64,000 nt of DNA from a virus (taxonomy: Duplodnaviria > Caudoviricetes): the IMG/VR virus record IMGVR_UViG_3300021255_002723, positions 1-64,000 of that record, one strand, 5' to 3'. Both the position numbers and the translations under genes were made by a program. Below, one piece after another: positions 14,728 to 58,978 of the stretch. The notes under the pieces were generated by a model. That model saw only the letters and a list, made by a program, of their open reading frames with translations, was not told the origin of the DNA and made no database searches. Each line of letters begins with the position of its first letter. Positions within the stretch are counted from its first letter, which is position 1.

Positions 14728-14766
14728 AAAAATAAGCGAATCTAAAAAAGATTCGCTTATTTTTTG
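14727..14766. terminator. bidirectional terminator, GCGAATC/GATTCGC stem
   Basis: aaaaaataagcgaatc-taaaaaa-gattcgcttatttttt between convergent genes. Confidence 0.8.
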
Positions 14767-14820: not shown

Positions 14821-15201
14821 TTAAAAATCCAAGTCGTTTTCTATTCGTCTGAAATGTCCATATTCATCTTTAACGTATTCATTAAAATCTTGGTCTCTGT
14901 AAATAGGCTCATCATCTTCTCTATCTATTCTTTCCCATCCTTTTGGTAGACTTTCTCTTGTATGATGCTTATACACAGCATCTTCCCAAGGGTCAATACC
15001 TTCTCTTAATATTCTACTCACAGATTCTTTCACAATATTGTGGATATAGTTTTCCATATTAAGATTCTTCAATTCCTTGTTTTTTCTAACCTTATCTAAA
15101 GGACTTTTCCACTCTTCATCACCCTCTTTCAATATTCTGTTAACTGATTTTCTAACTATATTGTGAAGGTCTGATTCTGTTAATCTTATTAATTTTTTCA
15201 T
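14821..15201 (-). CDS. LTES-leader family protein (putative head-internal protein)
   Basis: Starts MKKLIRLTESDLHNIVRKSVNRILKE, with a second internal copy IHNIVKESVSRILRE. Confidence 0.75.
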   Translation of the reverse strand: MKKLIRLTESDLHNIVRKSVNRILKEGDEEWKSPLDKVRKNKELKNLNMENYIHNIVKESVSRILREGIDPWEDAVYKHHTRESLPKGWERIDREDDEPIYRDQDFNEYVKDEYGHFRRIENDLDF

Positions 15202-15316
15202 ATTATAATACGTATTAATTTGTTATTTTAATAATAAAAATTACATTGATTTTGTTTTTTTTTTTCTGAGGAATTAAAAATTGGGAATGATATACTTGTT
15301 GACATTAAATATTATA

Positions 15317-16207
15317 CTACCACTTTATAAGATTATTTGAAATCCAAGTAAATAGTTTTACACTATCAATATTTTTAGACTTATATATTAATTTATTGTT
15401 TTTGTTATATATTTCACCATATCCATGTGATAATTTAAATCTGCATATCATTTCCTTTACTGAATCTTTATCAAAGATGCATTCTAGCACAGGCATATTA
15501 TCATTAGTGTCACCATAATGGTTTACTTCTACACCGCTACCAATAAAAACAACCCCCTCTTTACCATAGTTAGACAGTCTATATTGAGTATCGTTAATAA
15601 TATCATTAAGCTTATAAGCAAAACCATAATTTCCTTTCTCATTCTTATAGCCAAATGTCCAACCAAGGTTTTTTAATTCTGCACCATATTTAAAACCGTT
15701 ATTAAAAATGCTTTCAGCATCACCATCTTCAAAACAATAATGAACAAGCGGTTTGTTTAAAAACGGCTTTTTATAACCTAAAGTAATTGCATCTGGGATT
15801 ACATTTAACTTATTAACCCATTTTGCTGTTTTTTGTGAATAATATTGAGGAAACTGCATTATTCTTTTTTTAACAAAAAAACCAAACCTTTCATCAATAG
15901 GAAGAGAGTTTTCTTTTATGAAATTAGACATAGTATATTGAGTTAAATTATCAACCACGTCACCCAAATCCCACTCATATTCGTCATAGAGTTCTCTATT
16001 AACAATCGCCAAATAGTCAGCATAAAATTCTGGATAAATGTCAGCTAGCCATAATAAGGTTTTTTCATCCATTTTATGAATATTTTTTAAATGATTTTTT
16101 AAGTCACCATTCAATTTAGTCCAAGATTCATATAAAGCATACTTAACCGATTCTTTCACAATTCTATGAAGGCCTGATTCTGTAAGTCTAATTATTTGTT
16201 TATCCAT
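15317..16207 (-). CDS. LTES-leader family protein, possible ART-like C-terminal domain
   Basis: Starts MDKQIIRLTESGLHRIVKESV; LVHY...AESIFNNGF weakly resembles ADP-ribosyltransferase strand 1 and helix. Confidence 0.65.
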   Translation of the reverse strand: MDKQIIRLTESGLHRIVKESVKYALYESWTKLNGDLKNHLKNIHKMDEKTLLWLADIYPEFYADYLAIVNRELYDEYEWDLGDVVDNLTQYTMSNFIKENSLPIDERFGFFVKKRIMQFPQYYSQKTAKWVNKLNVIPDAITLGYKKPFLNKPLVHYCFEDGDAESIFNNGFKYGAELKNLGWTFGYKNEKGNYGFAYKLNDIINDTQYRLSNYGKEGVVFIGSGVEVNHYGDTNDNMPVLECIFDKDSVKEMICRFKLSHGYGEIYNKNNKLIYKSKNIDSVKLFTWISNNLIKW

Positions 16208-16359
16208 TGTTTAGTAATATTATTTCGGTAATAATATAGAAGATGGCACAAAACTATACAATGCCATCAGCATAGTATTGTTGTTCCATTTTTGATACAT
16301 ATTCTAATCCTATATAGTTGCCATATTATTTCTTATAAATATCAGCCTAAGTAAAAAAC

Positions 16360-24600: not shown

Positions 24601-24710
24601 TTTTCAACACATTACGAATATATTATAAATATATTCAAAAAAACATTTGTCTAGCTATTGATTTTTCAAAATAAAATATTATATTTTATATATATAAAAT
24701 ATAATATTTT

Positions 24711-26675
24711 ATGGCATTATCATTAAGTAAAATAGAAAAAGCTCACGAATTATTGAAGAATTACAACGGTAGCAATTCTTACATAATTAAACTCAGGAAC
24801 GTCATATTTGCCTACAGACTTAGGGCTATGAACGATTTTGAGGCTGAGTATGTTCTGTGTAATTATGACAAAGAGCCTAAGTTAATCAATAAAATTGTTA
24901 AAATAGCTGATTGGTATGGAGTAAAATGTCAAGAAGAGTGGGAAACTGAATTTACACCGAATAGGTTCAAAATTACATGGTTTTTGGGCGAAACATCACA
25001 ATTCTATCATTTCTATTGTATCTATAGAAGGTCGCAAGAAAAAGCTGTTGAGGTCTTTGCCCCAAAGAAAGGAATCCTCACTGATTTCCTGTGTGAGGAT
25101 TGGAACTTGAAAGAAATTGATTTTAAGCCCTACAGCGACAAAAGTGGGCGCACCCTTTATCCTTACCAAGAAGAGGCTGTAAAGTTCCTTATAAGCCGTA
25201 AAAAGGCCATTCTCGCAAGCGAAATGGGTAGTGGTAAGACGTTGGCAGCAATCATAGCGGCATTGGAGGGAAAATACGAGAAGATTCTGATAATATGTCC
25301 AGCATCTGTAAAGCTCACTTGGAAAAAGGAATTGAACTTGTTGGTTGACGATGATGATATAACAATAGTGGAGGGTAGCAAGTGGAAGGAAAACAAATTT
25401 ACAATCATCAACTATGACATTCTTAGGAATTTCTACGAAGTTCCAACTGAAATTGTCAAAAAGAAGGAACTTAACTTGGATGACGATGGAAAAATTGTGA
25501 ATGTCATAAAGGAAAAGGAAGTCGTTTCAAGGAAGAAGTCAGTAATTGAAGAAGCAATGGAAAACAGCCAGCTTTACCAATCAAAGTTCGACTTGGTGAT
25601 AATAGACGAGGCACACAGACTTTCAAACACCACAAGCGGAATTTTCAAGATAGTTTCTGACCTAATGCACAGAAGCAACCCTAAAGGTATTTTTGCCATA
25701 ACTGGAACTCCTATCACCAACCGTCCTATAAATTTCTTCAACATACTGAAGATAATTGATGCTCCGTTGGCTAGTGATTGGAAATACTACGTTGAAAGAT
25801 ATTGTGATGGAAAGTTCTTCTACAATAAAAAAGAACGTGATGCATACTCTGCAATATTTTGTAGGAAAAAGAAAAAGAACAGTTGGTATGACCTCACTCA
25901 AGAAGAAAAAGAAGAGCTTGATGAAATACTAGACAAAAACTGCAAGAAGATATGGGTCACTAACGGTTCTTCAAACCTAGATGAGCTTCAAGAGGTCGTA
26001 AAGTCATACTATCTCAGGAGACTAAAAAGTGATTTCGGAAAGATAGTTAAAAAGACTGTTAAGGTTTTGAATTACAAATTAACGCCACAAGAAAAAAAGG
26101 AATATGACAGCGTATGGGAAGAGTATATTACGTCAAAAAATAACATTGGCAAAGAGGATATTAACAAATATAAAAATATTACTGAAGGGATTATGTTACG
26201 TCAATGGTTAGCAAAATCCATGACATCAAAGACGATTAAACTAGCGCAGAAATGCATAGACAGAGGTTATAAAGTGGTTATATTCTGCTCGTTTGATGAT
26301 GAGCTTAACGCCATTAAAAAAGCATTTAAAGACATTTGTGTGGTGCATAATGGAAAACAAACTGCCAAGAGGAAAGACAAAGCTGTGGAAGAGTTTCAAA
26401 ATAACCCTGATATAAAAGTGTTTATCGGAAACATACAATCCGCAGGTGTTGGCCTTACCCTTGTCGCTTCTCGTGTTGCAATATTCAATAGCTTTTCATG
26501 GGTAAGCGGTGACAATCTGCAAGCAGAAGACAGAATTCACAGATTAAATCAAAAAAATGACGTAACTATTTATTATCAAGTTTTTGAAGATACCTTTTAT
26601 AAGGAAATGCTAGAAAAGGTAAGAGGAAAACAAGAAATAATAAACAACATAATTGTTAGTGAAAATGATAAATAA
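24711..26675 (+). CDS. SNF2-family helicase/ATPase
   Basis: EMGSGKT, IIDEAH, TGTPITN, AGVGLTL, QAEDRIHRLNQ. Confidence 0.93.
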   Translation: MALSLSKIEKAHELLKNYNGSNSYIIKLRNVIFAYRLRAMNDFEAEYVLCNYDKEPKLINKIVKIADWYGVKCQEEWETEFTPNRFKITWFLGETSQFYHFYCIYRRSQEKAVEVFAPKKGILTDFLCEDWNLKEIDFKPYSDKSGRTLYPYQEEAVKFLISRKKAILASEMGSGKTLAAIIAALEGKYEKILIICPASVKLTWKKELNLLVDDDDITIVEGSKWKENKFTIINYDILRNFYEVPTEIVKKKELNLDDDGKIVNVIKEKEVVSRKKSVIEEAMENSQLYQSKFDLVIIDEAHRLSNTTSGIFKIVSDLMHRSNPKGIFAITGTPITNRPINFFNILKIIDAPLASDWKYYVERYCDGKFFYNKKERDAYSAIFCRKKKKNSWYDLTQEEKEELDEILDKNCKKIWVTNGSSNLDELQEVVKSYYLRRLKSDFGKIVKKTVKVLNYKLTPQEKKEYDSVWEEYITSKNNIGKEDINKYKNITEGIMLRQWLAKSMTSKTIKLAQKCIDRGYKVVIFCSFDDELNAIKKAFKDICVVHNGKQTAKRKDKAVEEFQNNPDIKVFIGNIQSAGVGLTLVASRVAIFNSFSWVSGDNLQAEDRIHRLNQKNDVTIYYQVFEDTFYKEMLEKVRGKQEIINNIIVSENDK

Positions 26676-28881: not shown

Positions 28882-29133
28882 ATGGTTGAGTCGAAATTTA
28901 AGAAAGGAGATTATATCATTAATCGTGCAGCTGGTGATATGGCAATTATTGATAAGGTAACGCCAAAAAACTATTACCAATTCAAAGCATATTATACTGA
29001 CATGTTTCATAAACTAGAAGATTTAAAACAATACAATAAAGAGCTTCAAATTAATTATCAAAAATTCTGGGATTTTTGTACCGATGATGAAAAGAAAAAA
29101 CTAGATGATATAATAAAAAAAGGAGAGAATTAA
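28882..29133 (+). CDS. hypothetical protein
   Basis: 83 aa, FKKGD SH3-like start. Confidence 0.65.
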   Translation: MVESKFKKGDYIINRAAGDMAIIDKVTPKNYYQFKAYYTDMFHKLEDLKQYNKELQINYQKFWDFCTDDEKKKLDDIIKKGEN

Positions 29134-29145
29134 TTCTCTCCTTTT
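29117..29145. terminator. bidirectional terminator
   Basis: aaaaggagagaat-t-aattctctcctttt between convergent genes. Confidence 0.7.
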
Positions 29146-38104: not shown

Positions 38105-38140
38105 AAAAAGAGCAACTTTAATTAGTTGCTCTTTTTATTT
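38105..38140 (+). terminator. intrinsic terminator (insertion target of the element at 38141)
   Basis: aaaaagagcaact-ttaatt-agttgctcttttt. Confidence 0.8.
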
Positions 38141-38225
38141 GGCAATAACATAGAAGTTGACCCAACAAATCCCATCTTACTGATATTTATTATTAAAAAT
38201 AACTGTATAAACACATTAAAACGAT

Positions 38226-38699
38226 ATGAAGAAACTTATAAGATTAACAGAATCTGACTTACATAGAATTGTGATAGAGTCAGTGAAAAGAATCATCAAA
38301 GAAAATAATCAAAGGCATAAAAAAATAATAAGAGAATTCGAAGATGATGAAAGAGACTTTGGACAGTTCGGAGATTATCCACCATCTATGGAAGACATAG
38401 AAAAAGAATCAATGATAGATTGCACATTCTTGATTAATCAAAATGAATTAATATTAGAGCCAAGCGGAAACGTAATTAAAAACGATATACCAGATGATGA
38501 GTGGTGCTCAATAGAAATAACACCAGTATTCGAGAAAGATATAAATAGCCTATATGTTGATGACCTAAATTGGGAGTATTGCGAAGTGTCAGCCGAAATG
38601 GAAAAATCAATGGAATTGAAAACAATGATTGATAACGCAATAGAACAACACTTTGACGAAATATGCCAAAAAATATATAATACATCACCATATTCCTAA
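38226..38699 (+). CDS. LTES-leader family protein (cassette cargo)
   Basis: Starts MKKLIRLTESDLHRIVIESVKRIIKE. Confidence 0.8.
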   Translation: MKKLIRLTESDLHRIVIESVKRIIKENNQRHKKIIREFEDDERDFGQFGDYPPSMEDIEKESMIDCTFLINQNELILEPSGNVIKNDIPDDEWCSIEITPVFEKDINSLYVDDLNWEYCEVSAEMEKSMELKTMIDNAIEQHFDEICQKIYNTSPYS

Positions 38700-38722
38700 A
38701 TAAATATTTTGTATAACTATAC

Positions 38723-38757
38723 AAAAATGAGCAACCTAGCTAGGTTGCTCATTTTTT
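38723..38757. terminator. subterminal terminator of the cassette
   Basis: aaaaatgagcaacct-agct-aggttgctcatttttt; a near-identical copy lies at about 57391-57423. Confidence 0.8.
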
Positions 38758-38795
38758 AGATATATGGGTCAACTTCGATGTTATTGCCTTTTATT

Positions 38796-42773: not shown

Positions 42774-42826
42774 TATAAACCTTTTCTATAAAAAATAATT
42801 ATTTTTATATAAATATCAAGACTATC

Positions 42827-44704
42827 TTATTTAACTCCACCCATAAGCCACATATACGTTCCATTTGGAACATTATCATATTTATGTAGATTTTTTCCTG
42901 AATAGAATGGCAAACCAACAGAAGGTGAAATAGCAGAGCCATAATTGATTCTAGGCTTGTTCATCCTAATTGCATTTGTCATCATATAGGCATTAAGAAT
43001 TGATTTGTCTTTGTTTACAGTATTCTGTATTCTATTGACAGTAAACTGCATTACAAACAATCCCATTGCCAACGCAGTAAGGGTATCGTCATGCGCACCG
43101 TCTTGGTGGTCTATTCTAGCATTTTCACCCTTGAATATCCATGTCTCCAATTCGTTGATAACCCTAGCAGAACGAATCTTAAACTCATCGTTACGAACAA
43201 GTCCTGCAAAGTTAGCCAATACTGGATAACGGTTTCCTTGGAAATGGAAACCAGGAAGTTTATCCGTATATCCGTCATAGTTTTTAGTTGACCTCTGTAC
43301 TGTATATGTCTTTTGATTTGAATCTTCATAGTAAAGGTTTTTGTACCCCATTTGAAGCATCGTCAATATACAAGCATCACCTTGACCACCAGTACAGTCA
43401 ACGACAACAAACGCATCATTGTACAACGTGCCATACTGATAGCACAGCGCACCGATGTCATCACCTAGCTTTTTACCAACATATTCCGCAACTTGTTCTA
43501 TGATAGGCATTCCGTTTTCATCCCTACCGTCCATATCAATTATCTCTATGGCAGTTCTATCGGCTGATACACCTCTAGATGGGTCGCAAGCTAGAATGTA
43601 TCTATGCCCTTCAATTGGTTTCTTCCAAAACCAAGTCTCTTCAACCAATGGGTCAGCGAAATCCTCAAGCGGTTCTCTGTTGTTAAGCTTCTCTTGCATT
43701 TCAATAAACTCTGGAGCAACAACGTTGTCAGCAGAACCCATGAACGATACGTCTAGCTCTTGGGCTATTTTCATTGAGTCGTTATTGAACGACTTACACA
43801 TATCTTCATACCAAGGTGCTGTAGGCTTCCATCCCTTATGCTCTAATTCTGCCCACCTTTCCTCATCATACTTAACGCTACCCTCATCATCTATGATTGG
43901 GTCTTGGTCGTACATCCATTCACCTGTGTCTTCATTTTTCTTTTTCCACACAAGGAACTTGTTGAATCGTGGGTCTTGATACCAACGGAACTGAACAGCA
44001 ACAAAGTTGTTTTCACGGCTTAAGGCTTGTCTGTATGTGTTGTAATACAACTCATCCCTACCATTAGGCGTAGACACCATCACAGTCTTGGAATTTGGGT
44101 TTGAGGCCATTGTAGCGGCAGCAGTGGTAAATACTGCCACACCCTCTTCAATGAACGCAGCCTCGTCCAATATAAGCACAGATACAGCAGAAATACCACG
44201 AGCAGCATTAGGACCGCTAGCACGTGCAATCACTCTGCAACCGTTGAAAAGTTTTAACTCGCCTTTTGCGTCTTTAACGAATATTGATTTTATGTTTTTT
44301 TCTGAATTTGGGTCAGGACTAAAATACTCACTTCCCCAAATCCATCTTGGAACTTGCTCAAGAAAATCACGGATTTTAATAATAATTTCTTGTGCTTGTT
44401 CAAGTTTGTTTGCAATACACAACACAGTCTCTGGGGAATCTTTTGATGCAAATGCGCACTGAGCAGTTACCCACGCGCTTGATAATGTTGTGATACCACA
44501 CTGTCTAGGTTTAATTGCAACCACATTTCTGTTTTCAGCCAATGCCCTCAAGAAAGCCCTCTGTCTAGGGAAACAGTGGAATTGGGTCTTCTTACCTTTA
44601 ATTGCATTGAAAGTAGATAGGTATTTTTCAATGAACGCTATCCTAGATTTGTCAGCATAGCACATTGCATAGTCTTGCTGGATTTGTTTGTAATCGTATA
44701 TCAT
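42827..44704 (-). CDS. terminase large subunit (T4 gp17-like)
   Basis: KPRQCGITT, ILDEAAF, VSTPNG, QELDVSF, CDPSRG..AD, HDDTLTA. Confidence 0.95.
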   Translation of the reverse strand: MIYDYKQIQQDYAMCYADKSRIAFIEKYLSTFNAIKGKKTQFHCFPRQRAFLRALAENRNVVAIKPRQCGITTLSSAWVTAQCAFASKDSPETVLCIANKLEQAQEIIIKIRDFLEQVPRWIWGSEYFSPDPNSEKNIKSIFVKDAKGELKLFNGCRVIARASGPNAARGISAVSVLILDEAAFIEEGVAVFTTAAATMASNPNSKTVMVSTPNGRDELYYNTYRQALSRENNFVAVQFRWYQDPRFNKFLVWKKKNEDTGEWMYDQDPIIDDEGSVKYDEERWAELEHKGWKPTAPWYEDMCKSFNNDSMKIAQELDVSFMGSADNVVAPEFIEMQEKLNNREPLEDFADPLVEETWFWKKPIEGHRYILACDPSRGVSADRTAIEIIDMDGRDENGMPIIEQVAEYVGKKLGDDIGALCYQYGTLYNDAFVVVDCTGGQGDACILTMLQMGYKNLYYEDSNQKTYTVQRSTKNYDGYTDKLPGFHFQGNRYPVLANFAGLVRNDEFKIRSARVINELETWIFKGENARIDHQDGAHDDTLTALAMGLFVMQFTVNRIQNTVNKDKSILNAYMMTNAIRMNKPRINYGSAISPSVGLPFYSGKNLHKYDNVPNGTYMWLMGGVK

Positions 44705-44785
44705 AATTGAAACTTTCTAAATTTTAATAAATATAGCGTAACTTTCAAAAGTTATTCATTTATAAATATTTACGAATAAAAAAAA

Positions 44786-44879
44786 GAGCGAATCAGAAAG
44801 ATTCGCCCATATGTTCGACAAGTCGATTGGACTTGTTCGTAAATGGTCTGAAATTAGGGTAGGTTTGATTGATGTGTAA
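44786..44879 (+). pseudogene. 3' end remnant of an IS1595-like transposase
   Basis: Encodes SESERFAHMFDKSIGLVRKWSEIRVGLIDV*, near-identical to the C-terminus of 58525-58734. Confidence 0.85.
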
Positions 44880-44883
44880 TGCA

Positions 44884-45207
44884 TTAACCTTCCATTCCCA
44901 AAAACTGGCCACCTTCATCATATTTTTCAAAATTGTTAGTGACCTTTGCGACACTTCTAACCGTTACTAATATTCCTTTAAAATTCAAGTCAATTAATCC
45001 TTCTCCTTCACTACCATTTAAAGCACCAAAAGAAAAACGGTTATCCATATATGGTAGTTTTTTAACATCTTCAAAATCCATACCATCTATTATTTGCTTT
45101 GCTTCCATATAGTCTTCGTTATGGCCTTCTTTCAATACTCTATTTACAGACTCCTTCACAATTCTATGAAGTTCACTTTCTGTTAATCTAATCAATTTTT
45201 TATTCAT
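44884..45207 (-). CDS. LTES-leader family protein
   Basis: Starts MNKKLIRLTESELHRIVKESVNRVLKE. Confidence 0.8.
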   Translation of the reverse strand: MNKKLIRLTESELHRIVKESVNRVLKEGHNEDYMEAKQIIDGMDFEDVKKLPYMDNRFSFGALNGSEGEGLIDLNFKGILVTVRSVAKVTNNFEKYDEGGQFLGMEG

Positions 45208-45260
45208 TGTTGTATATTTTTTTATAAATATTAATTAAAAAGCAAAAATTTGATATTTGC

Positions 45261-46787
45261 TTATATGATGTTCAAATCATATTCAATTTCATCAGTTTCC
45301 TCTTCTGTCATTGCTTCAATGTTAACTATTGGGTCTAAATATCGCAAGCCCAAACAATATGCATTGTTAAAACGCTTGCTATGATGTTCAGTACAATTTT
45401 CACTGTTCAATTTATTTCTATCTATAGTTACCCTATACACGCAAGGCCAATCATTATTAAAGGCATAATCTAACGCCATTGTTTTGGAATCTGTTAGCCA
45501 ATATGTGCCATACATTTGAGGGTCTTCGTTTTTATTCCCACCATGATACAGAATTATTGTGCTAGCATCTTCATCTTCTTCAATTACATCACCATCACCT
45601 TCCTCTGAATCTAGTTCATATCCATTGGTTTCAGCACCAGTGAAATATGAGTCCTTAATTAAAGATTTGTCAACATTTCTAGCATTTATTCTATTTGTAA
45701 ACTGTTGGTATCCGTTGTCATATTCGGCTTCCTTCATCAGTTCTCCGATTATTTCGTTTCCCTTTTCAGTTGATGCTAGTATTTCCTTAACCACATCGTT
45801 GAACTCATCTATGGAAATCCTGACAAATGACGTGAACATATAAGGAATCATGTTGGTGTCTTCAACCCTTCCGAAAATCATATCCCAAAGGCCAACGCCA
45901 AGCCTTAAATCCCAAGGCTCTGCAAGCACGAAATCAGCTTTCTTTATGACATGCATTGCATTTTTCTTATCCTTTGGAAGTCCATGTGATGAGAACAATT
46001 CAAACATACCTCTTATTGCCTCTTGGAACAACAAAGGAAATATAATACCTTGAACCTTTATTGTTGTTTTTGAATCACCGACACCCAAATGTGTCTCAAC
46101 GTAAGAACCTTGCATTGGCTTGTCATCTGTCATTTTTTCCTTTTTAATGAAAAGCAAATAGTCATTGATTATCCTTATTCTTCTGTACAATCTAGGAAGT
46201 TCAGGATTTATCCTATCAATGTCGCTGATATAAAGTCCTTCAACCTTTGCATATGTGTATGAAGCACCTTGTATTAAAGCATCTATAAATCTTCTCTTTT
46301 CAATTGCCTTATTTGAAAACTCTATATCCTTTATGTCCTTAAACGTGTGGTTTAAATCCACATTTGACTCTGGTCTCAATCTAATTGCGCTCTTAAACTT
46401 AATTCTGTCAACCAACTTAAAAATCAAGTTAATACTTTCCTCTGGAATTGCAAACAACTTGTTCAATGCGTTTTCGCATATCTTCTCCAACGAATCCCTA
46501 ACAGGCATTTCCAATTCTTTTGCCCTTTTCAGAAGTTCGCTAAGTTCAGTCATAAGCTCATCCTCAGTACAAGACCCCAATCCGATAGCCTCAATTTCAT
46601 CGCACACCTCATTATACCTTGTTTTCAACAAAGTATAATCAAACGGATAGTCACCAACATTAGGAAACGCACCATTATCGCCTAATGACGTACAGTGGGT
46701 TTTAACCATCTTATACAAAAACCTAGGCAATAGTCTTCCGTTTATAACACTAGATACAGAATTTTCGTTTATGTATATTTTTTTCAT
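45261..46787 (-). CDS. putative head protein with C-terminal ART-like domain
   Basis: MKKIYINE leader; C-terminal ILYHGG...YWLTDSKTMALDYA...VYRV. Confidence 0.55.
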   Translation of the reverse strand: MKKIYINENSVSSVINGRLLPRFLYKMVKTHCTSLGDNGAFPNVGDYPFDYTLLKTRYNEVCDEIEAIGLGSCTEDELMTELSELLKRAKELEMPVRDSLEKICENALNKLFAIPEESINLIFKLVDRIKFKSAIRLRPESNVDLNHTFKDIKDIEFSNKAIEKRRFIDALIQGASYTYAKVEGLYISDIDRINPELPRLYRRIRIINDYLLFIKKEKMTDDKPMQGSYVETHLGVGDSKTTIKVQGIIFPLLFQEAIRGMFELFSSHGLPKDKKNAMHVIKKADFVLAEPWDLRLGVGLWDMIFGRVEDTNMIPYMFTSFVRISIDEFNDVVKEILASTEKGNEIIGELMKEAEYDNGYQQFTNRINARNVDKSLIKDSYFTGAETNGYELDSEEGDGDVIEEDEDASTIILYHGGNKNEDPQMYGTYWLTDSKTMALDYAFNNDWPCVYRVTIDRNKLNSENCTEHHSKRFNNAYCLGLRYLDPIVNIEAMTEEETDEIEYDLNII

Positions 46788-47269
46788 TATAAGCTATTTA
46801 AAAACTTGCTTAATTCTTTTTTTGTGAAAGGAATGGAATTCCTTCTCATTTCATCCATAACCTTTCTAGGCGCAACTGAATTTGTTTCCAAAGAACTAGA
46901 ATCTGAAGAAGTGTTGGACGTTGCTGGTGTTAAATCTACTGACATGTCATCATTTTCAGGTTTACTAGCCAAATTTTGAACTCTACTTATTTGCGCACCT
47001 GTAGCATTAGCTGGTAAGCTAACTTTTAAACCTTCACCAGTATTTGAGTCATTTTGATTATCCATTTGACCCAATTGATTTTGAACAAGTTTTGTGTTAG
47101 GATTCTGGTTCATTATTTTAGACCCTTGAGCAACAAATTGTCTGATATTTTTAGCATTTGGCGCAGTGGCAACAAAACCTTCTTCGTTTAGCCTTAACTG
47201 GCTTTTTGAATAAATTCTACCTTCACCAAGGTTTACCAATTTATTATTTCTTTTAACCAATATTTTCAT
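46787..47269 (-). CDS. hypothetical protein
   Basis: 160-aa ORF with a late motif upstream. Confidence 0.65.
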   Translation of the reverse strand: MKILVKRNNKLVNLGEGRIYSKSQLRLNEEGFVATAPNAKNIRQFVAQGSKIMNQNPNTKLVQNQLGQMDNQNDSNTGEGLKVSLPANATGAQISRVQNLASKPENDDMSVDLTPATSNTSSDSSSLETNSVAPRKVMDEMRRNSIPFTKKELSKFLNSL

Positions 47270-47341
47270 ATTACAAATTTTATATATAAATATTTAGACA
47301 AAATAAAAAAGGGATACTTCTAAGTACCCCTTTTGTTTATT

Positions 47342-49647: not shown

Positions 49648-52600
49648 TTAATAATTTCTAACGTCATCATAAGTGCCCCTTACATTATCAAAGCCCCTAT
49701 TATCGAATTGTATGTTTCTTCTGATGTTTGGAGTAAACTTGTCTAACGCCCTAATATATACAACACTCTTAGGCTTCATCTCAATTTCATCCCATTGGAC
49801 GCATAGGCAATAATTATACCCTATAAGGTTTGATAGCCAAGTGTCCGTAAAGCACTTATAAAGCTTTCCTTGCTTGTTATCTTCCTTCGACTGCATTACT
49901 ACACCATTGTTACATATAAAGTCCTTCAGAACCTTTCTTTCGGTTTCCCAACGCTTTTTATATGGGTTTGAATTACTGCTGCCGTCTAATGCAAACTCTT
50001 CCTTTAGAACCGTAATATATTTCTTTACAGATTCATCAACGTGAATGTTTTTTTCCTTAAACCACTCAATGTTTTTTTGCATATATTTCGCAATTAATGC
50101 TTCTTTGTCTTTAACAATAGAATGATTAAGCAATTCAAAATTAAACAATACGTATTCAGTATCAAACTCAAAACCATCAATACCTAATGATAGGTATAAT
50201 TTTGACAACTGTTTATCAGGGTTTCTATCCGAATACCACAACAAAGGTATGTGGTTATTTAAATAGAAATAAGTTAAATCATTTTCATCACTTTCCGAAA
50301 TAACTTGAATAATGGCATTTAGTAAATCTTTGTCAACCGTATTATCATATTCTTCAATCATTGAAGAAATTCTGTCATATTCTCTGTTGTTTCTTGCATT
50401 ATCAAGTTTATTTTGTAACAAATAATATTCTTTTTGTTTGTCCAAGAAAATATTATTGTCTTTGTTAATCTTATCCCTTAAATTAATAATATTAAAACCA
50501 TTTATATTTGCTATTATATAATGTCCATCTGTATAAGTGGTATATTTTTCGCATTTATATGCGTGGGCTGTAAAATATATTCCATAGCCGTATGTTCCTC
50601 TGCTTCCACCTTTTATCTTTGTTGGGTCAACAGTATCCCACTCTGTTCCATTTCCATCTTCTCCTGTGCCATGAAAAACATATCCATCTTCTGCCATTTC
50701 GCCAATAACCTTATATCTAGCCATTTGGTTATTCCTGAAAATGTCGTATCTAGCACCTTCCGTTACAGACTCTGTAATTGAATTCGTCTTGTCATAAACA
50801 GCATTCGAAAGCTTCCAAAGACGGTCAAGATAGCCTGTTCTTCTCAGTATCTTATACACAATGTTTCCGCTTCCGCTTTCGCCATGCTTCTCAAGACTGC
50901 TCTTGCGCATTTCCTTTACCTTTTTCCAAAGATAATCTGCATCATCACCCATCTGTTCTATTTCATAAGAATCATCCGTAGCTGCAAGAGCGTCATACAT
51001 ATCGTCAATGATTGTCATGATTTTTGCTGCCTTGTCCTTAATTGAAAACTTGTTCAACCTTATTGGTTTAATATCATTAGGATTTGGCTCTTTTATCCAA
51101 TCATTTTCCTCCAAGTCATAAATGCCATTTGATTCTGGCATTTCACCCAAATTCTGAACATAAAGCTCAACTTGGTATCCCATTATCTGAAGACCTTTAT
51201 GCTCGTTGTTCCACTCATTCTTCTTTGCATCTAAATAATCATGGACAAACTCTGTCTTTTCATCAATTTCATTGAAATCAACAATAAGATGTAAATCAAT
51301 GTCAGAATATTGAGACCAATTGAAATTACAGATTGAACCTGTTAATATTATACCACTAGGCTCAACCCAAGTCAAGTTTACATATTTCCAAAAATCGTCT
51401 GCAATGTCTAATAGTTTAAGCCTAATTCTTGAATCTAGCTTGCCATCTGGTTTCCATATATTTGGAACTAATTCATGTTTTTTCTTGAATGAAGATAAAT
51501 CTATTTCAGAACTATCTACCTCAAAATCAAAATTCTCTTTAATTATTTTTAGTTGGTTTTCAGAAACTACTATTTTCTTATTTTTATTCTTTGACTCAAT
51601 TAACGATAAATTACCGCTAGTGTCAAGTTTATATACATTACCATTAAGTTGAACCACAGCAAAACCTTCACGGAAATTACCAACATAATCAAACCATTGG
51701 TTGCTCAACAATCTACCTTCTTGGTTGATGAAATTCCACTTGTTATTAAGACTAACCTTAGCAAAACCTTCACGGAAATTACTGATAAAATCAAACCATT
51801 GGTCACTTAAAAGCCTACCTTCTTGATTGATGAAATTCCATTTGCCATTAAGTTCGACACTAGCAAAACCTTCACGGAAATTACCAACATAATCAAACCA
51901 TTGGTTGCTCAACAATCTACCTTCTTGGTTGATGAAATTCCACTTGTTATTAAGACTAACCCTAGTAAAACCTTCGCTGAAATTACCAACAGTATCAAAC
52001 CATTGGTTACTCAACAATCTACCTTCTTGATTGATGAAATTCCATTTGCCATTAAGTTCGACACTAGCAAAACCTTCACTGAAATAACCAACATAGTCAA
52101 ATACATCGTGTATATCTTCTCCATTAGCAAGACGTTGCATAACATTGGCTATAAGTTCATTCCACTTATTGTTTGGCTTAAACGCCTCAAAGAAATTCAT
52201 ACCAATTACTTGACTCACTTCCTTTGCATTCATAATACTGTCATCACCACCATTATCGTGATTCCAACGACAAGTGCAAGTGTTTAACATGCCATTTTCA
52301 TTAACGCTTACGGCTATCATAGACAAGCCGTACTCATCCAATGGACAACCTTCAGATGGTGCTTCCTCAACATTCTCAAAACCATTTCTTAAGCAAAAAT
52401 AAAATTGGTTGATACCGTCACTAGTGTATGAATTAAACATATTATTATCGTGCGTTACACACCAAGATACGTAATCACCGTATTCCTCTGCTTGTTCAAA
52501 AGAGTCAATTCTAACAATCTCATAATCAGAAGGGGTGTTAAACGCCATCTTGCCAATTTCAGCCTTCTCAGCCTCAAGATTGTCACTCATTGCTTTTGCA

Positions 52601-55119
52601 AACCTTTGAATAAGTTCTTGACAAGACATTCCATTAAGATTCCTATCATACTCATTGATATGAGCATCTGAAGCCACTAACTTAAGTGTTGAATTAAGAT
52701 TTCCAATGTCATTGGCAGTTCTTAATTCACCGTCACAGAACATCCTTGTCACGCCAAGGATGAACTTGCTGCCTTGAGGTGTTCTTAACGTTGGAATGTC
52801 GTTTCTGAGTTTAATCCTTATAAATTTATCAGCTTCTTGTTCATTATAGTTAAGTCTTTGCATTACAAGTTTTTTTGCAGCTGCAATGGACTTTGATTCT
52901 TGCGACTCTATAATTAGATGAGAATTATTCATGTTTTTATTTTCATATTGCACGTTTCCCATTGGTTTTATCCCATCCTCATAATATCTCCTTATATCTG
53001 CAACAACAGCTTGAGGTTTAGCATCTGAGTATGAAACTGAATGCAATGTATTTCCTTTGTCATCGGTAAAATCTATGTCAACGTCAACAGCATTTCTAAT
53101 AAAATCTCGTATTACATAGAACTGTTCATTTGTAGGCTCTTTAGTCATGTCAAGAATTCCAGTGTTAACGTCACATCTTATTGCACCGTGATTCATAAAG
53201 TCAACAACATAGTTATAGCGATACTCGTCATTCCATATTTTTATCCCATTCTGTTTATAAACAGCTGCTATTTGTCTATGGTCTGTTTCTCTATATCCAT
53301 CACTTCCAAAATTCAACAATTTCCCATCTGGAAGAATATATCCAGCTTGGTTCAATCTGCTAGTTAAACCAAACTCATCTATGGCCAAAGAAATAATATC
53401 ATAATTTTCTTTTGGCTGTTCTAAATCTTTTCCGTTTTCTTCTTTGTTTTCTTCGTCAGTCCAAAGTTTAGTAATTTTATGGAGTCTATCACTTAATGCT
53501 GTATATATCTTAATATCTTTTGGGTCTACACTTATTTCTGGGTGCGTCTTTTTCATCCAAGAGCTTATATACCAACCATCAAACCCATATTTTTCTTTTC
53601 CTTGTTTCAAAAAATATTGTAGGCCGTAATTTGCCTTGTTAAACAAATCATCATATTTATTTTCTATTATTTGCGCTTTATTTTTTTTACTTTCGTGGAA
53701 ACGATTTCCTTGAGGTTTTATCCCTTCATCAAAATATGCTAATATATCGTTTATAATCCTATTAGGGTTTGCATTTTTGTATTCTGCACCACATATCATT
53801 TCTGCATAAAATCTCCCCTCTTTATATGAGGAAATGTCCAAAAATAGACTTCCATCAAATTCTATGATATGTTTTTTCAATGGTTTTATTTGCTCTTTCG
53901 TTGGTTTTTTAGTTAATTCTATTCCTCCAAGGTTGCCAATTCTTATATTCCCTAAATTCAAGAATTTACCAACAGTCATGCCATTTATTTTAGATATTTC
54001 ACTATGGTCTCTGAAAGTTATAACATCACCATTTGTTAAAATATATGAACTATTCCCTTTGGTTTGTATTTTTTTGGCAATTGCATTAATATCCATAACT
54101 GCGCCAATTTCAGATGAATCGAAACTAGCAGATTCATTGATATTTAAACCATCTAATAGATTTTTATTCTTTGACTCATAATATTCATTTCCTTGTGGCT
54201 TAATTCCTTCTGAATAAAACCTGTCAATTTCTCCCATGACATATCTCCAATCTGGACGTATATAGTGCGCCCCAATACTACTTTTTCCTTGGTATATGTC
54301 CAAGTATAGTTCCTCATCTGCATAACAAGCAATCGCTCTTCTTAACACGTCTCTTTGCTCACTTGTTGGCTCGCTACCAATATCAATTGACTGGGGCAAT
54401 ACCCTAATATTACCCATTCTTATAAAATCAAATTTATTGTTTATGTTTGGTATCCTACATATTTCATTATGTTCTGATTCAGTGTATACCACAACACCAT
54501 TTGTCAAGATAAAACCTCTACAATCCTTGAAATAGTCACCATGCCTTAATAATTTCATGGCCATATTGTTGATGCTATCTTTGTTGCTCACATCCACGTC
54601 ATTGTCAGAATACAAGTTAACAGTTTCAAATGAACCACTGCCATCATTCATGCAAGTTGTTAAAATCTCGTTTTGCATCTTACTGCCAAACATATCTTCT
54701 AACGTATCATAATCCACATAGTCAGTACCGCAAGTATGATAAGTTTCATTATCTAGATATTCTAATTCAAACTCAACATTATCATTAATGTATTCCATCA
54801 ATGACTCTTGCGTGTTCTCATACTCAGCATCTTGTAGCCATTCTTGATATTCATCTTCGTCAAAATCCCAAGAATAGTTAACTGCGCCAACTTCAGATGA
54901 ATCGAAACTAGCAGATTCATTGATGTGATAACCGTTACCGCCTACTGGGGGATTATCACTTTCAGCACCAATTTCATATTCATCAATTTCTGGTGCCGCT
55001 TCGTTCACATTTACAGAAACGTCATTATGGCTGACACCATCAGTGCCAACCATAACTTCGTTTAATCTATTTTTAATCATTATTAAACTGCCTTCATTAA
55101 ATCTAACAGTCTTACTCAT
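49648..55119 (-). CDS. 1823-aa multidomain (polyvalent-like) protein: three repeat domains, WG repeats, nucleotidyltransferase, ART-like domain
   Basis: GSICNFNWSQYSDIDLH...VELY (pol-beta NTase), YVFHGT...GYGIYFT (ART-like), KWNFINQEG repeats, three (G/S).IL..G...H..I...G.IR modules. Confidence 0.75.
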   Translation of the reverse strand: MSKTVRFNEGSLIMIKNRLNEVMVGTDGVSHNDVSVNVNEAAPEIDEYEIGAESDNPPVGGNGYHINESASFDSSEVGAVNYSWDFDEDEYQEWLQDAEYENTQESLMEYINDNVEFELEYLDNETYHTCGTDYVDYDTLEDMFGSKMQNEILTTCMNDGSGSFETVNLYSDNDVDVSNKDSINNMAMKLLRHGDYFKDCRGFILTNGVVVYTESEHNEICRIPNINNKFDFIRMGNIRVLPQSIDIGSEPTSEQRDVLRRAIACYADEELYLDIYQGKSSIGAHYIRPDWRYVMGEIDRFYSEGIKPQGNEYYESKNKNLLDGLNINESASFDSSEIGAVMDINAIAKKIQTKGNSSYILTNGDVITFRDHSEISKINGMTVGKFLNLGNIRIGNLGGIELTKKPTKEQIKPLKKHIIEFDGSLFLDISSYKEGRFYAEMICGAEYKNANPNRIINDILAYFDEGIKPQGNRFHESKKNKAQIIENKYDDLFNKANYGLQYFLKQGKEKYGFDGWYISSWMKKTHPEISVDPKDIKIYTALSDRLHKITKLWTDEENKEENGKDLEQPKENYDIISLAIDEFGLTSRLNQAGYILPDGKLLNFGSDGYRETDHRQIAAVYKQNGIKIWNDEYRYNYVVDFMNHGAIRCDVNTGILDMTKEPTNEQFYVIRDFIRNAVDVDIDFTDDKGNTLHSVSYSDAKPQAVVADIRRYYEDGIKPMGNVQYENKNMNNSHLIIESQESKSIAAAKKLVMQRLNYNEQEADKFIRIKLRNDIPTLRTPQGSKFILGVTRMFCDGELRTANDIGNLNSTLKLVASDAHINEYDRNLNGMSCQELIQRFAKAMSDNLEAEKAEIGKMAFNTPSDYEIVRIDSFEQAEEYGDYVSWCVTHDNNMFNSYTSDGINQFYFCLRNGFENVEEAPSEGCPLDEYGLSMIAVSVNENGMLNTCTCRWNHDNGGDDSIMNAKEVSQVIGMNFFEAFKPNNKWNELIANVMQRLANGEDIHDVFDYVGYFSEGFASVELNGKWNFINQEGRLLSNQWFDTVGNFSEGFTRVSLNNKWNFINQEGRLLSNQWFDYVGNFREGFASVELNGKWNFINQEGRLLSDQWFDFISNFREGFAKVSLNNKWNFINQEGRLLSNQWFDYVGNFREGFAVVQLNGNVYKLDTSGNLSLIESKNKNKKIVVSENQLKIIKENFDFEVDSSEIDLSSFKKKHELVPNIWKPDGKLDSRIRLKLLDIADDFWKYVNLTWVEPSGIILTGSICNFNWSQYSDIDLHLIVDFNEIDEKTEFVHDYLDAKKNEWNNEHKGLQIMGYQVELYVQNLGEMPESNGIYDLEENDWIKEPNPNDIKPIRLNKFSIKDKAAKIMTIIDDMYDALAATDDSYEIEQMGDDADYLWKKVKEMRKSSLEKHGESGSGNIVYKILRRTGYLDRLWKLSNAVYDKTNSITESVTEGARYDIFRNNQMARYKVIGEMAEDGYVFHGTGEDGNGTEWDTVDPTKIKGGSRGTYGYGIYFTAHAYKCEKYTTYTDGHYIIANINGFNIINLRDKINKDNNIFLDKQKEYYLLQNKLDNARNNREYDRISSMIEEYDNTVDKDLLNAIIQVISESDENDLTYFYLNNHIPLLWYSDRNPDKQLSKLYLSLGIDGFEFDTEYVLFNFELLNHSIVKDKEALIAKYMQKNIEWFKEKNIHVDESVKKYITVLKEEFALDGSSNSNPYKKRWETERKVLKDFICNNGVVMQSKEDNKQGKLYKCFTDTWLSNLIGYNYCLCVQWDEIEMKPKSVVYIRALDKFTPNIRRNIQFDNRGFDNVRGTYDDVRNY
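51610..52110 (-). repeat. tandem 102-bp (34-aa) WG-type repeats in an A-B-A-B pattern
   Basis: GFASVELNGKWNFINQEGRLLS.QWFD alternates with GF..VSLNNKWNFINQEGRLLSNQWFD; about 4.5 units. Confidence 0.9.
54097..54923. repeat. 45-bp direct repeat pair (INESASFDSSE.GAV)
   Basis: taactgcgccaaYttcagatgaatcgaaactagcagattcattgat at about 54097-54141 and 54879-54923, one mismatch. Confidence 0.85.
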
Positions 55120-57359: not shown

Positions 57360-57426
57360 GGCAATAACATCGCAGTTGACCCAAATATCTAAAAAATGAG
57401 CAGCCTAACCAGGTTGCTCATTTCTA

Positions 57427-58008
57427 TTAATGTGGTTTAGAAGGTGTTGAACCATTCGTATTGATATTGGTTTCATAGTCTTCTCTTGCATAGAGATAGT
57501 TAGAAACGAAGGTCAGCACTCTTTTTATCTGTTCTTCATTATGGGGTAGTAAAGTATGCAACTTTCTACTACGTGTGGTTTTGTCAGAGTAAGACACTCT
57601 ATAAAAGTCTTGTGTATTGAAGTTATATTCGATTGCTCCGATACCAAATGGCCTTAACGACACCGTTAATTGTCCGTGCAATACTATTCTTTCATTGTCT
57701 ATGTACTTTACATCAGTGAAACGCAAATCGACTGGGTACGACTGATTTGTCTTCTCATTGTGTTCAACAAACTCAAGGGTCAAGTTTGGAAAGTTGTCGT
57801 GTATTGCAAGTGACAACGCTTTCATTGTTAAGTTTTCGCTACCTCCCATCTTTGTTCTTGCATTAGGATTTCTACTATTCATATAATCTTATTGTGCATT
57901 GTAGTTCGCACCGTGTGTTAGTGCAGCGCCACGATAGCCTATTTCTTTGATTACTTGTTTTACTATGTTATGTATATCATTCTCTGTTAATCTGATTATC
58001 TGTTTCAT
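57427..58008 (-). pseudogene. LTES-leader family gene interrupted by an in-frame TAA
   Basis: ATG 58008 gives MKQIIRLTENDIHNIVKQVIKE...NAQ*DYMNSR; the stop at 57889-57891 is in frame with the 57427-57882 ORF. Confidence 0.8.
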
Positions 58009-58044
58009 TCTGATACGATATTTACCATAAATATCTTCTCGCTG

Positions 58045-58076
58045 CAAAATTACATTCAATTTCTGATAAAAACAAA
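58045..58076 (-). promoter_or_regulatory. Bacteroidota sigma70-type promoter inside the element
   Basis: Minus strand TTTG, 20 nt, TAATTTTG upstream of ATG 58008. Confidence 0.6.
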
Positions 58077-58125
58077 TTCTACGTGATATTTATTAGAAAA
58101 ATAACGAATTAATACGTATTATAAT

Positions 58126-58521
58126 ATGAATAAGAAACTTATAAGACTAACAGAATCAGACCTTCATAGAATTGTAAAAGAGTCTGTACAGAGGGTTCTA
58201 AATGAAGCTTATGACTATAGTTTGCGCAATACATTGCCTAGAGATATAAACGGCATACCATTACGTGTCGGAGATAAAGTTACTTACTATAATAGAACTG
58301 GAAACTATGATACAATACCTTATAGGATTGGTGGTACAATAGAGAATATTGAAAAAACTGATGAGGGGGATGGGTTTGTTGTTACTATACAAACAAAAAA
58401 GCGTGGAACAATCTCTACAGAATGGGCAAAGCACGATGTTGAAAAGGATAATAGCAGTGGCGTAAGTCATCATACTGATGATTTGACAAGACAAATAACG
58501 CATGTCTTATTTCCACATTAA
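58126..58521 (+). CDS. LTES-leader family protein (passenger), SH3/KOW-like body
   Basis: MNKKLIRLTESDLHRIVKESVQRVLNE; DING.PLRVGDKV. Confidence 0.8.
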   Translation: MNKKLIRLTESDLHRIVKESVQRVLNEAYDYSLRNTLPRDINGIPLRVGDKVTYYNRTGNYDTIPYRIGGTIENIEKTDEGDGFVVTIQTKKRGTISTEWAKHDVEKDNSSGVSHHTDDLTRQITHVLFPH

Positions 58522-58524
58522 ACA

Positions 58525-58734
58525 CTAAGCAGCAACAAGACCAACTCTAATCTCAGACCACTTTCTAACAAGTCCAATTGACTTGTCGAACATATGGGCG
58601 AATCTCTCTGATTCGCTCATTTTTCTTGTGTTCCAACGATACACAGCCTCGTCAATGTACTGCTGCAAATGCTCATCAGAGGTGAAATACGAGGTGAGGG
58701 AGATAACGCTGTTGAATTTCTTGAAATCTATCAT
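58525..58734 (-). pseudogene. internally deleted IS1595-family transposase
   Basis: N-terminus MIDFKKFNSVISLTSYFTSDE fused to the C-terminal HLQQYIDEAVYRWNTR motif; the zinc ribbon and most of the catalytic core are absent. Confidence 0.85.
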
Positions 58735-58978
58735 AACACTTGGTTTTTTATTTAAATTCTAATACAAATATAGGATTTTTCAACTCCCAAGTGCTGGCTC
58801 TTATACATATAAATTTACGAAATTGAATATATTCTGAATAGTCAATTTACAAAGTAAATTGTTAACATCAATAATATGGTAAAAAACGAATACAAAAATA
58901 ATTCCTCAGAATCACGAGGATTCCAAGGAATTATTAAAAAGTTGGGTCAACTTCTATGTTATTGCCTTTATTATTATT

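Follow-up and report, generated by a model that had tools for sequence, protein, structure and literature searches.

The IS1595 family of insertion sequences is said, in the ISfinder classification and by Siguier et al. 2009, to contain subgroups with passenger genes. Target duplications of 8 bp are a trait of the family, and both IS1595 elements that carry passengers and remnants of mobile elements that act as terminators are known kinds. Correia elements and repeats of the ERIC/RUP type are miniature inverted-repeat transposable elements (MITEs) or fragments of insertion sequences which act as bacterial terminators or promoters. The locus described here lies in a window of 64,000 nucleotides, positions 1 to 64,000 of the virus record IMGVR_UViG_3300021255_002723 (Caudoviricetes), where a fragment of the 3' end of a transposase gene, starting at ~44780, faces a small gene with an N-terminal leader close to the terminase gene, TerL. 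The fragment is truly a remnant of an IS1595-type transposon that carried a passenger, and we consider it probable that the region from ~44780 to 45222 is a non-autonomous relic of this type in which the terminator hairpin of the passenger has been fused to a resident terminator by recombination between hairpins.

Intact relatives of the fragment resemble the IS1595 family in having the DDE_Tnp_IS1595 domain, a zinc ribbon, inverted repeats, 8-bp A/T-rich duplications and extra genes inside the element. They differ from it in that the passenger is convergent, abutting or overlapping the transposase stop, in that the passengers are highly variable small proteins, many with an N-terminal leader of ~25 aa, and in that a predicted passenger-strand terminator hairpin lies inside the transposase coding region of elements found in phage genomes. 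The window fragment is further unlike the family in having neither domain, repeats nor duplication of its own. As with the Correia and ERIC/RUP-type repeats, a leftover of a mobile element provides a stem-loop that would shape the transcription of neighbouring genes, but here the stem-loop comes from transposase coding sequence rather than from terminal repeats and has apparently merged with a resident terminator. The attC cassettes of integrons are similar in that small, promoter-poor and varied genes are each followed by a conserved border hairpin and the cassettes at one locus differ; here, however, the hairpin is followed by a U-run, and movement is by a DDE transposase with repeats and duplications. 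The likeness to integron cassettes is an analogy only, no integrase or attI having been seen, although no search was aimed at them. Phage morons share with this locus a small accessory gene and a terminator between two conserved genes, absent from the closest relative, but here it is possible to say from which particular transposon family the accessory gene came. A search of the literature found no title on IS1595 elements in phage genomes and nothing for 'crAss-like' together with 'IS1595'. We regard the combination of a convergent passenger with a putative intra-transposase terminator, a leader-tagged set of cargos, a phage setting and a hairpin as cassette border as a new variant.

The locus is made up of the following parts, given in order of position in the window. 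Loci outside the window are denoted by L and a number, L027 being the closest relative at TerL.

44705..44777, minus strand: conserved block from the terminator to the TerL start codon, the presumed promoter region, common to cassette-free relatives.
44778..44785, minus strand: run of eight T directly 3' of the hairpin on the cargo and TerL strand, continuous with native sequence common to cassette-free relatives.
44786..44808, minus strand: predicted terminator hairpin, GGGCGAATC, loop TTTCT, GATTCGCTC (terminator scan, RNA fold).
44787..44879, plus strand: C-terminal 30 codons of an IS1595-family transposase, SESERFAHMFDKSIGLVRKWSEIRVGLIDV, and their stop codon (sequence comparison).
44884..45207, minus strand: passenger (cargo) gene, which encodes 107 aa and has MNKKLIRLTESELHRIVKESVNRVLKEG as its N-terminal leader.
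45208..45222, minus strand: short segment ahead of the cargo start codon that retains similarity to the other leader genes.
45261..45565, minus strand: C-terminal extension, ~100 aa, of the upstream 508-aa gene, missing in L027.

In a blastn comparison of the window with itself, 44780-44874 (+) matches 58624-58530 (-) over 96 nt with 87.5% identity (E 3e-24), and in tblastn the two tail copies share 34 aa at 82% (E 9e-16). The 30 codons that they have in common contain 14 nucleotide differences. Eight codons are changed synonymously and three, the final sense codons (VAA to IDV), non-synonymously; NG86 estimates are 0.074 for dN and 0.74 for dS. The alignment with the end of the transposase, differing mostly at synonymous sites, from which the original prediction for this locus set out, is therefore sound. 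The tail ends in a TAA stop at 44877-44879 and is separated by 4 nt (tgca) from the convergent cargo gene that begins MNKKLIRLTES. The spacer is 3 nt at the second copy (cargo end 58521, remnant end 58525); the convergent geometry of 58126-58521 against 58525 is the same in both places, as had been pointed out. The open frame of the tail runs from 44766 with its first ATG at 44811, leaving it without an in-frame start codon. Homology to the transposase stops at ~44780, directly 5' of the A-run and hairpin, in agreement with the claim that the retained piece begins at the hairpin.

There is no inverted repeat within 44700-45300, as the first inspection, which saw no terminal inverted repeats, had suggested, and ungapped matches of at least 17/26 to the 26-nt element end are found elsewhere only, the best in the window being at 16227, 57360, 58941, 38141 and 38763, with others. 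A search for the element end with up to 3 mismatches gave 16227-16251 as its sole match and none near the tail. The fragment, which consists of only the 30 codons beyond the domain, contains neither DDE_Tnp_IS1595 nor the N-terminal zinc ribbon, and no 8-bp target duplication can be defined around it. A MITE would have both repeats and the duplication but no transposase, and 44780-45222 is not of this form. Since the fragment is without the family features and its full-length relatives have them, it is a relic of an IS1595 member and not itself a member. On the side of the right inverted repeat (IRR), no homology to the element region upstream of the cargo was found beyond 45208-45222.

Assembled Logan contigs, which carry no 3' ends, strand or level, were compared with the locus for 4 of 17 public runs, most of the 17 containing just a small fraction of the sampled words. 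The summed contig depth over 44772-44852 is 37-76 versus ~5, which shows no more than that those samples contain the tail as a repeat in multiple copies. A single contig joint in run X10, from 44864 to 45126, links the tail to a leader and probably comes from another element; 45258-45500 was without cover in all four runs, which is uninformative.

The parent family is recognised from its intact copies. A scan of viral contigs with the 69-aa transposase remnant of the second tail copy found 24 tail loci, five of which (L003-L007) have a complete gene of 328-331 aa with the same tail end. Full-length relatives match DDE_Tnp_IS1595 with an E of 2e-45 and Zn_ribbon_IS1595 with an E of 5.5e-9 (L003) and 1e-8 (L007). 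In four of the five full-length viral loci inverted repeats of 25-27 nt (GGCAATAATATAGCAGTTGGCACAA) bound the transposase together with further genes, the left repeat lying ~85-110 nt before the transposase start and the right repeat past one or two further genes, to give elements of 1513, 2504, 2701 and 3026 bp. Three of these four are flanked by 8-bp duplications (L003, AAAAATTA; L006, TTTCCTTA; L007, AAAAAAAG); none was found for L004, and for L005 the right end was not found. The gene that follows the transposase is convergent in these loci, its stop abutting or overlapping that of the transposase, and is a leader gene in L003 and codes for unrelated proteins in the others. The original prediction of an older related element holds in so far as the locus is a decayed member of a real transposase-plus-cargo family, whose intact relatives have repeats and duplications.

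The transposase is 64-98% identical to genes in contigs titled as metagenome-assembled genomes (MAGs) of rumen or gut Prevotella, Prevotellaceae and Bacteroidaceae; some of these Prevotella/Bacteroidales contigs may themselves be phage DNA. Among L080-L130 there are 43 loci with a full-length open reading frame (ORF) and at least 30 nt downstream; 30 of the 43 have a convergent ORF of at least 60 aa at the transposase stop, at least nine of these being leader genes, and the repeat pairs in MAG contigs imply elements of ~2-3.4 kb. The 50,697 named phage records gave no match to the 69-aa remnant (tblastn) or to 42800-47300 (blastn); the intact transposase matches three unannotated phage records at 37-38% identity. 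Pooled without L006 and the frame-broken relics, codon differences are 477 synonymous to 284 non-synonymous in tail-only copies and 40 to 34 in intact genes. The synonymous bias of the tail-only copies equals that of the intact genes, and the relics therefore descend from many working transposases and not from one old fragment.

On the plus strand the hairpin consists of GAGCGAATC (44786-44794), a loop of AGAAA and GATTCGCCC (44800-44808), adjoining a run of eight A at 44778-44785. The terminator scan of the minus strand gives 9 pairs (5 G-C), a loop of 5 and the tail TTTTTTTTAT, so that the GCGAATC/GATTCGC hairpin with a T tract on the cargo strand, described in the original prediction, is recovered as a 9-bp stem followed by T8. 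Over 44000-46000 the scan found 2 sites compared with 1.1 ± 1.1 in shuffled sequences. The minus-strand RNA fold has an energy of -13.8 kcal/mol (z -6.4), equalled or bettered by none of 200 shuffles, versus -9.6 kcal/mol on the transposase strand. The structure has the form of an intrinsic terminator, a G+C-containing stem-loop followed directly by a U-run on the minus strand, and its position is also as expected, the stem starting 75 nt past the cargo stop and the T-run ending 73 nt before the TerL start. From these features the hairpin probably terminates the passenger transcript and would now also be the terminator ahead of the TerL promoter block. Its 5' arm and loop are of the transposase-tail type and its 3' arm is common to the resident terminator of L027. 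Rfam gave no match at E ≤ 1 over 44500-45400. A second stem in the tail, ACAAGTC/GACTTGT, was rejected as a functional structure, synonymous Gly-Leu codon variants breaking it in L003, L016, L017, L021 and L025.

Across the transposase copies the structure of the tail hairpin is conserved; it favours the cargo strand and co-occurs with convergent cargo. It is kept in all 26 tail copies compared. Folded as the cargo strand it has energies of -11.9 to -18.8 kcal/mol; one stem position is G.U there but A.C on the transposase strand, which usually costs the latter several kcal/mol of stability. The loop is hypervariable in the relics, three of which have stop codons in it. An A-to-G change (Ser to Gly) in four relics makes the G.U pair G-C, a T-to-C change in two others pairs on the cargo strand alone, and in W44 and L018 the ATG is lost, so that the T-run abuts the stem. 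Divergent transposases have a different hairpin, in another register, at the equal site (AAAGCGTTCC/GGGACGCTTT). Of 62 loci scored, we used 56, all of them full-length and with either a convergent ORF or no less than 300 nt of downstream sequence. Hairpins of -10 kcal/mol or lower are found in 34/39 loci with a convergent ORF versus 3/17 without (Fisher p 9.5e-7, ignoring kinship).

The TerL protein belongs to Pfam Terminase_6N and is T4-like, its nearest named relative, at 28% identity, being that of a Flavobacterium myovirus; a crAss-like assignment was rejected accordingly. We collected 51 loci with TerL relatives, dropped the 12 that had little or no upstream sequence or lacked the TerL N-terminus, and aligned 17 of the 39 usable ones. 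The tail is present at the TerL locus in none of the 39 relatives and a leader gene in four; intact versions, which alignment of related phages had been proposed to reveal, exist, but at other loci. L027 has a TerL protein that is 100% identical and an upstream gene that is 98% identical in DNA, and is without the window sequence 45565..44817. Its upstream gene ends in DVIEENE and a stop, likewise in the more distant L053 and L052, and with this gene end common to all three the window is the insertion state. Relative to L027 the window has ~750 bp more, made up of the cargo, the tail and the ~100 aa by which the upstream gene is lengthened at its C-terminus. The upstream gene itself (45261-46787, minus strand) and its counterparts in L027-L075 have a conserved body of ~400 aa, an acidic-linker end and a variable C-terminal module, which is absent in forms of 404-406 aa and is of ~100 aa in the window, ~150 aa in L028, L035 and L042 and ~280 aa in L044 and L069.

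At the equal position L027 has a resident hairpin followed by T7, with arms as in the window (GAGCGAATC/GATTCGCTC) and an entirely different loop. A terminator is found at the TerL position in 12 of the 17 aligned relatives, which are cassette-free there. Its stem is in most of them the related GAGCAATC/GATTGCTC, and the conserved block that extends to the TerL start comes after it. In the window hairpin the 5' arm and loop match tail relics such as L020, and the T-run and the sequence downstream match L027; with a tail-type arm and loop beside a native T-run, the junction between cassette and native sequence therefore lies inside the hairpin. A contig of run X9 passes from the TerL side into a hairpin of the L027 type. 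In L062 a leader gene is followed directly by the native hairpin without a tail, so the tail would not be needed to terminate such a gene at the TerL locus. A comparable switch is seen between L017 and L024: their 144-aa neighbours are identical and the flank has 4/600 differences, then 10/60 positions differ starting with the A-run and hairpin, and the two cargos are not the same. Seven loci upstream of the homologous 144/146-aa gene keep the tail and differ in their cargos, only the leader of ~25-30 aa being common.

From the family homology and architecture, the empty site in L027, the position of the junction and the strand bias and cargo co-occurrence of the hairpin, all of which are observed, we infer both actual termination by the hairpin and a route of recombination as follows. 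In the intact element a left and a right inverted repeat would enclose first the transposase (328 aa) and then at least one convergent passenger gene. A hairpin in the 3' coding region of the intact transposase, with an 11-bp stem including a G.U pair and then a U-run, would be the intrinsic terminator of the passenger strand, and would end the passenger transcript ~75 nt past its stop, before it could run antisense through the transposase gene. The surviving parts at the present locus would be the 107-aa passenger of the leader family and the last 30 transposase codons, their hairpin apparently fused to the resident terminator and T-run which cassette-free relatives have ahead of the TerL promoter block. 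Given this fusion, the transposase body and the left repeat were most likely lost by recombination between two hairpins with the same stem. This may have been either a deletion in situ or the arrival of a cassette trimmed beforehand, with a single crossover in the hairpin. Such recombination accounts for the exact border better than does erosion that selection brought to a halt, and selection for a terminator at the TerL position is still likely.

Erosion was the mechanism favoured in the original prediction, namely that a complete element was worn by random deletions until selection for the cargo terminator stopped the process exactly at the hairpin. Homology is indeed lost right at the A-run and hairpin in 12/20 truncated copies, some relics improve the stem or the T-run, as with the ATG lost in W44 and L018, and the hairpin co-occurs with convergent genes. 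However, these borders are partly non-independent, 7 of the 12 being one orthologous locus, and L015 and L019 have their left repeat joined to the A-run through a CACAA(A/G)AAAA microhomology, a mechanical cause of that border. At the window locus the T-run and the block downstream are native and not element sequence, neither the right repeat nor the duplication is left, and a terminator with the same stem is already present in cassette-free L027, as are native terminators in 12/17 relatives. The boundary thus need not be that of gradual erosion halted at the hairpin, and we regard this course of events as unlikely, although it retains some weight. A rather slimmer chance attaches to the hairpin being mainly a site of recombination or exchange, where cassettes of tail and cargo are swapped by one crossover in the A-run and stem and termination is incidental. 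Two independent switches from flank to divergent tail occur at the hairpin, in the window relative to L027 and in L017 relative to L024; the seven loci before the 144/146-aa gene keep the tail while holding different cargos, and the synonymous bias indicates that the tail-only relics stem from many working transposases. Against this, no site-specific recombinase was identified, though without an aimed search, and the stem is the only sequence conserved in all copies, so that ordinary homologous recombination would favour it in any case; the strand-specific wobble changes and the U-run point to a function in RNA.

The tail could also still be translated as a small peptide or be conserved for a function at the protein level, and dN/dS between the two window copies is ~0.10, the 30-codon frame is open in 15/20 truncated copies and most have an ATG before the hairpin. 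But the window copy has no start before the hairpin, the ATG is lost in W44, L018 and L025, three relics have a stop in the loop, L024, L025 and L026 have frame-breaking indels, and descent from different working transposases accounts for the synonymous bias; we find this explanation barely credible. Returning to the fusion of a passenger terminator with a resident one, a number of points weigh against it. The loci with neither hairpin nor convergent ORF are mostly the most divergent, and the test of co-occurrence ignores phylogeny. RNAalifold found no consensus pair in a mixed alignment of 49 sequences; the hairpins being in two registers and some copies having none, the structural support therefore comes from folds of the individual sequences. 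The relics were collected with the tail as query, by which tail-less relics are missed by design. Other hairpins can serve instead, as in a 648-bp element of the window (described below) and in L078. The ~70 nt of tail that separate the hairpin from the cargo stop have been kept as well, which a role as terminator leaves unexplained. Neither the right repeat nor the sequence upstream of the cargo survives and the upstream gene has gained a domain, which implies more than one event. The transposase-type stem in the resident hairpin of L027 is not accounted for by the fusion either.

The cargo gene belongs to no significant family in Pfam or PHROG, nor do the other passengers, and in the ESM Atlas the cargo matches unnamed viral clusters only (score ≤ 0.84, inside the chance range). 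A protein database search with the cargo gave 412 proteins at E ≤ 0.001, none of which is functionally named. Eleven of them, the window protein included, span at least 97% of its length at 55-100% identity, and most of the others share only its first quarter to half, that is, the leader; the C-terminal 80 aa have no relative in the viral contigs. The metagenome contig L078 has the same cargo, at 97% DNA identity over 298 nt with the derived tail end included, followed by a hairpin of the native type and then by a different convergent IS1595-type transposase. This transposase (851-1453 of L078, minus strand) has another C-terminal end (...HNVYYHWYMHNKVSA) and is convergent to the same cargo. 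L079 has a cargo homologue of 53% identity followed by a tail of the L006 type, with its hairpin fused to the left repeat. At ~3330-3400 of L079 two element ends stand back to back with a T7 run between them, which suggests adjacent or nested insertions into one A/T run.

The window contains seven leader genes, at 14821-15201(-), 15317-16207(-), 37766(+), 38226(+), 44884-45207(-), 57889-58008(-) and 58126-58521(+). They share the N-terminal leader of ~25 aa, M.KKLIRLTESDLHRIVKESV.R.L.E, and are mutually unrelated in the remainder; the 126-aa leader protein has a second, internal copy of the motif. Three further features of the window are related to the element or to its hairpin.

57360..58966, no strand: bounded derivative element of 1607 bp with repeats at 57360-57385 and 58941-58966 and the 8-bp duplication TTTATTAT.
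38141..38788, no strand: transposase-less bounded element of 648 bp with repeats at 38141-38166 and 38763-38788 and the 8-bp duplication TTTTATTT.
14734..14758, no strand: stand-alone bidirectional hairpin with a GCGAATC stem and an A-run, 62 nt past the leader gene 14821-15201 (-).

The duplications are perfect at both bounded elements. The larger contains the 69-aa remnant, a leader gene of 131 aa (58126-58521, plus strand), an ORF of 151 aa and a leader fragment of 39 aa. The remnant (58525-58734, minus strand) is the product of an in-frame internal deletion that has kept ~20 N-terminal and 49 C-terminal residues, and it matches DDE_Tnp_IS1595 over the last 20 profile positions only (E 0.014, 15.9 bits, cut-off 27). 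No other match to it was found in the 94-kb record, so no intact transposase is detected in this phage. The smaller element has a leader gene from 38226 (plus strand) and is a MITE, having both repeats and the duplication and no transposase; its palindromic terminator at 38727-38752 has the outer stem ATGAGC...GCTCAT in common with the tail hairpin. A tail remnant was sought beside the stand-alone hairpin at 14734-14758 and rejected, only the A-run and stem matching, with no adjoining tail sequence.

A solo element end at 16227-16252 (plus strand, 23/26 matches) lies 19 nt from the start of the leader gene 15317-16207, pointing away from it, and a weaker end-like site (15283-15308, plus strand, 18/26) lies between two leader genes; together they may be a further rearranged cassette. 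The terminators at 14734-14758, 38108-38133, 38727-38752 and 57392-57423 share stems of the (A/G)AGC(G)AA(T)C type, two of them directly inside or outside element ends, and the 8-bp targets of the elements are A/T runs adjoining such hairpins, which suggests that the elements insert into the T-runs of terminators. The window also contains tandem repeats of ~102 nt (51638-52101, 82-92% identical), coding for repeated ...NGKWNFINQEGRLLSNQWFD... units in the giant protein of an ORF of 1823 aa at 49648-55119, and its self-comparison showed perfect palindromes at 24671-24712 (42 nt) and 29118-29145 (28 nt, resembling a bidirectional terminator).

A wider proposal, to which we would attach a low probability, is that the tail hairpin with its A/T run and the leader are the constant borders of an exchange system, by which rumen phages may swap small leader-tagged genes through crossovers in the hairpin, with no working transposase needed, at fixed hot spots before TerL and before the 144-aa gene. 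The stand-alone GCGAATC terminators at 14734-14758 and in L027 would then be the last traces of earlier cassettes.

Subjects that are usually treated apart meet at this locus, namely insertion sequences in lytic-type phages, how small accessory ("moron"-like) genes arise and how terminators arise. An IS1595-type family common to rumen Prevotella/Bacteroidales contigs and phages delivers diverse small proteins, with a putative terminator inside the transposase gene, and relics of the transposon persist as cassette borders. The more than 400 unnamed leader-tagged proteins in the database form a large and uncharacterised family, and whether they have a role in common would be worth testing. If the hairpin both terminates transcription and is a preferred site of crossover, this would explain how accessory genes are shuffled at fixed positions in these phages with the promoters of the core genes left undisturbed.

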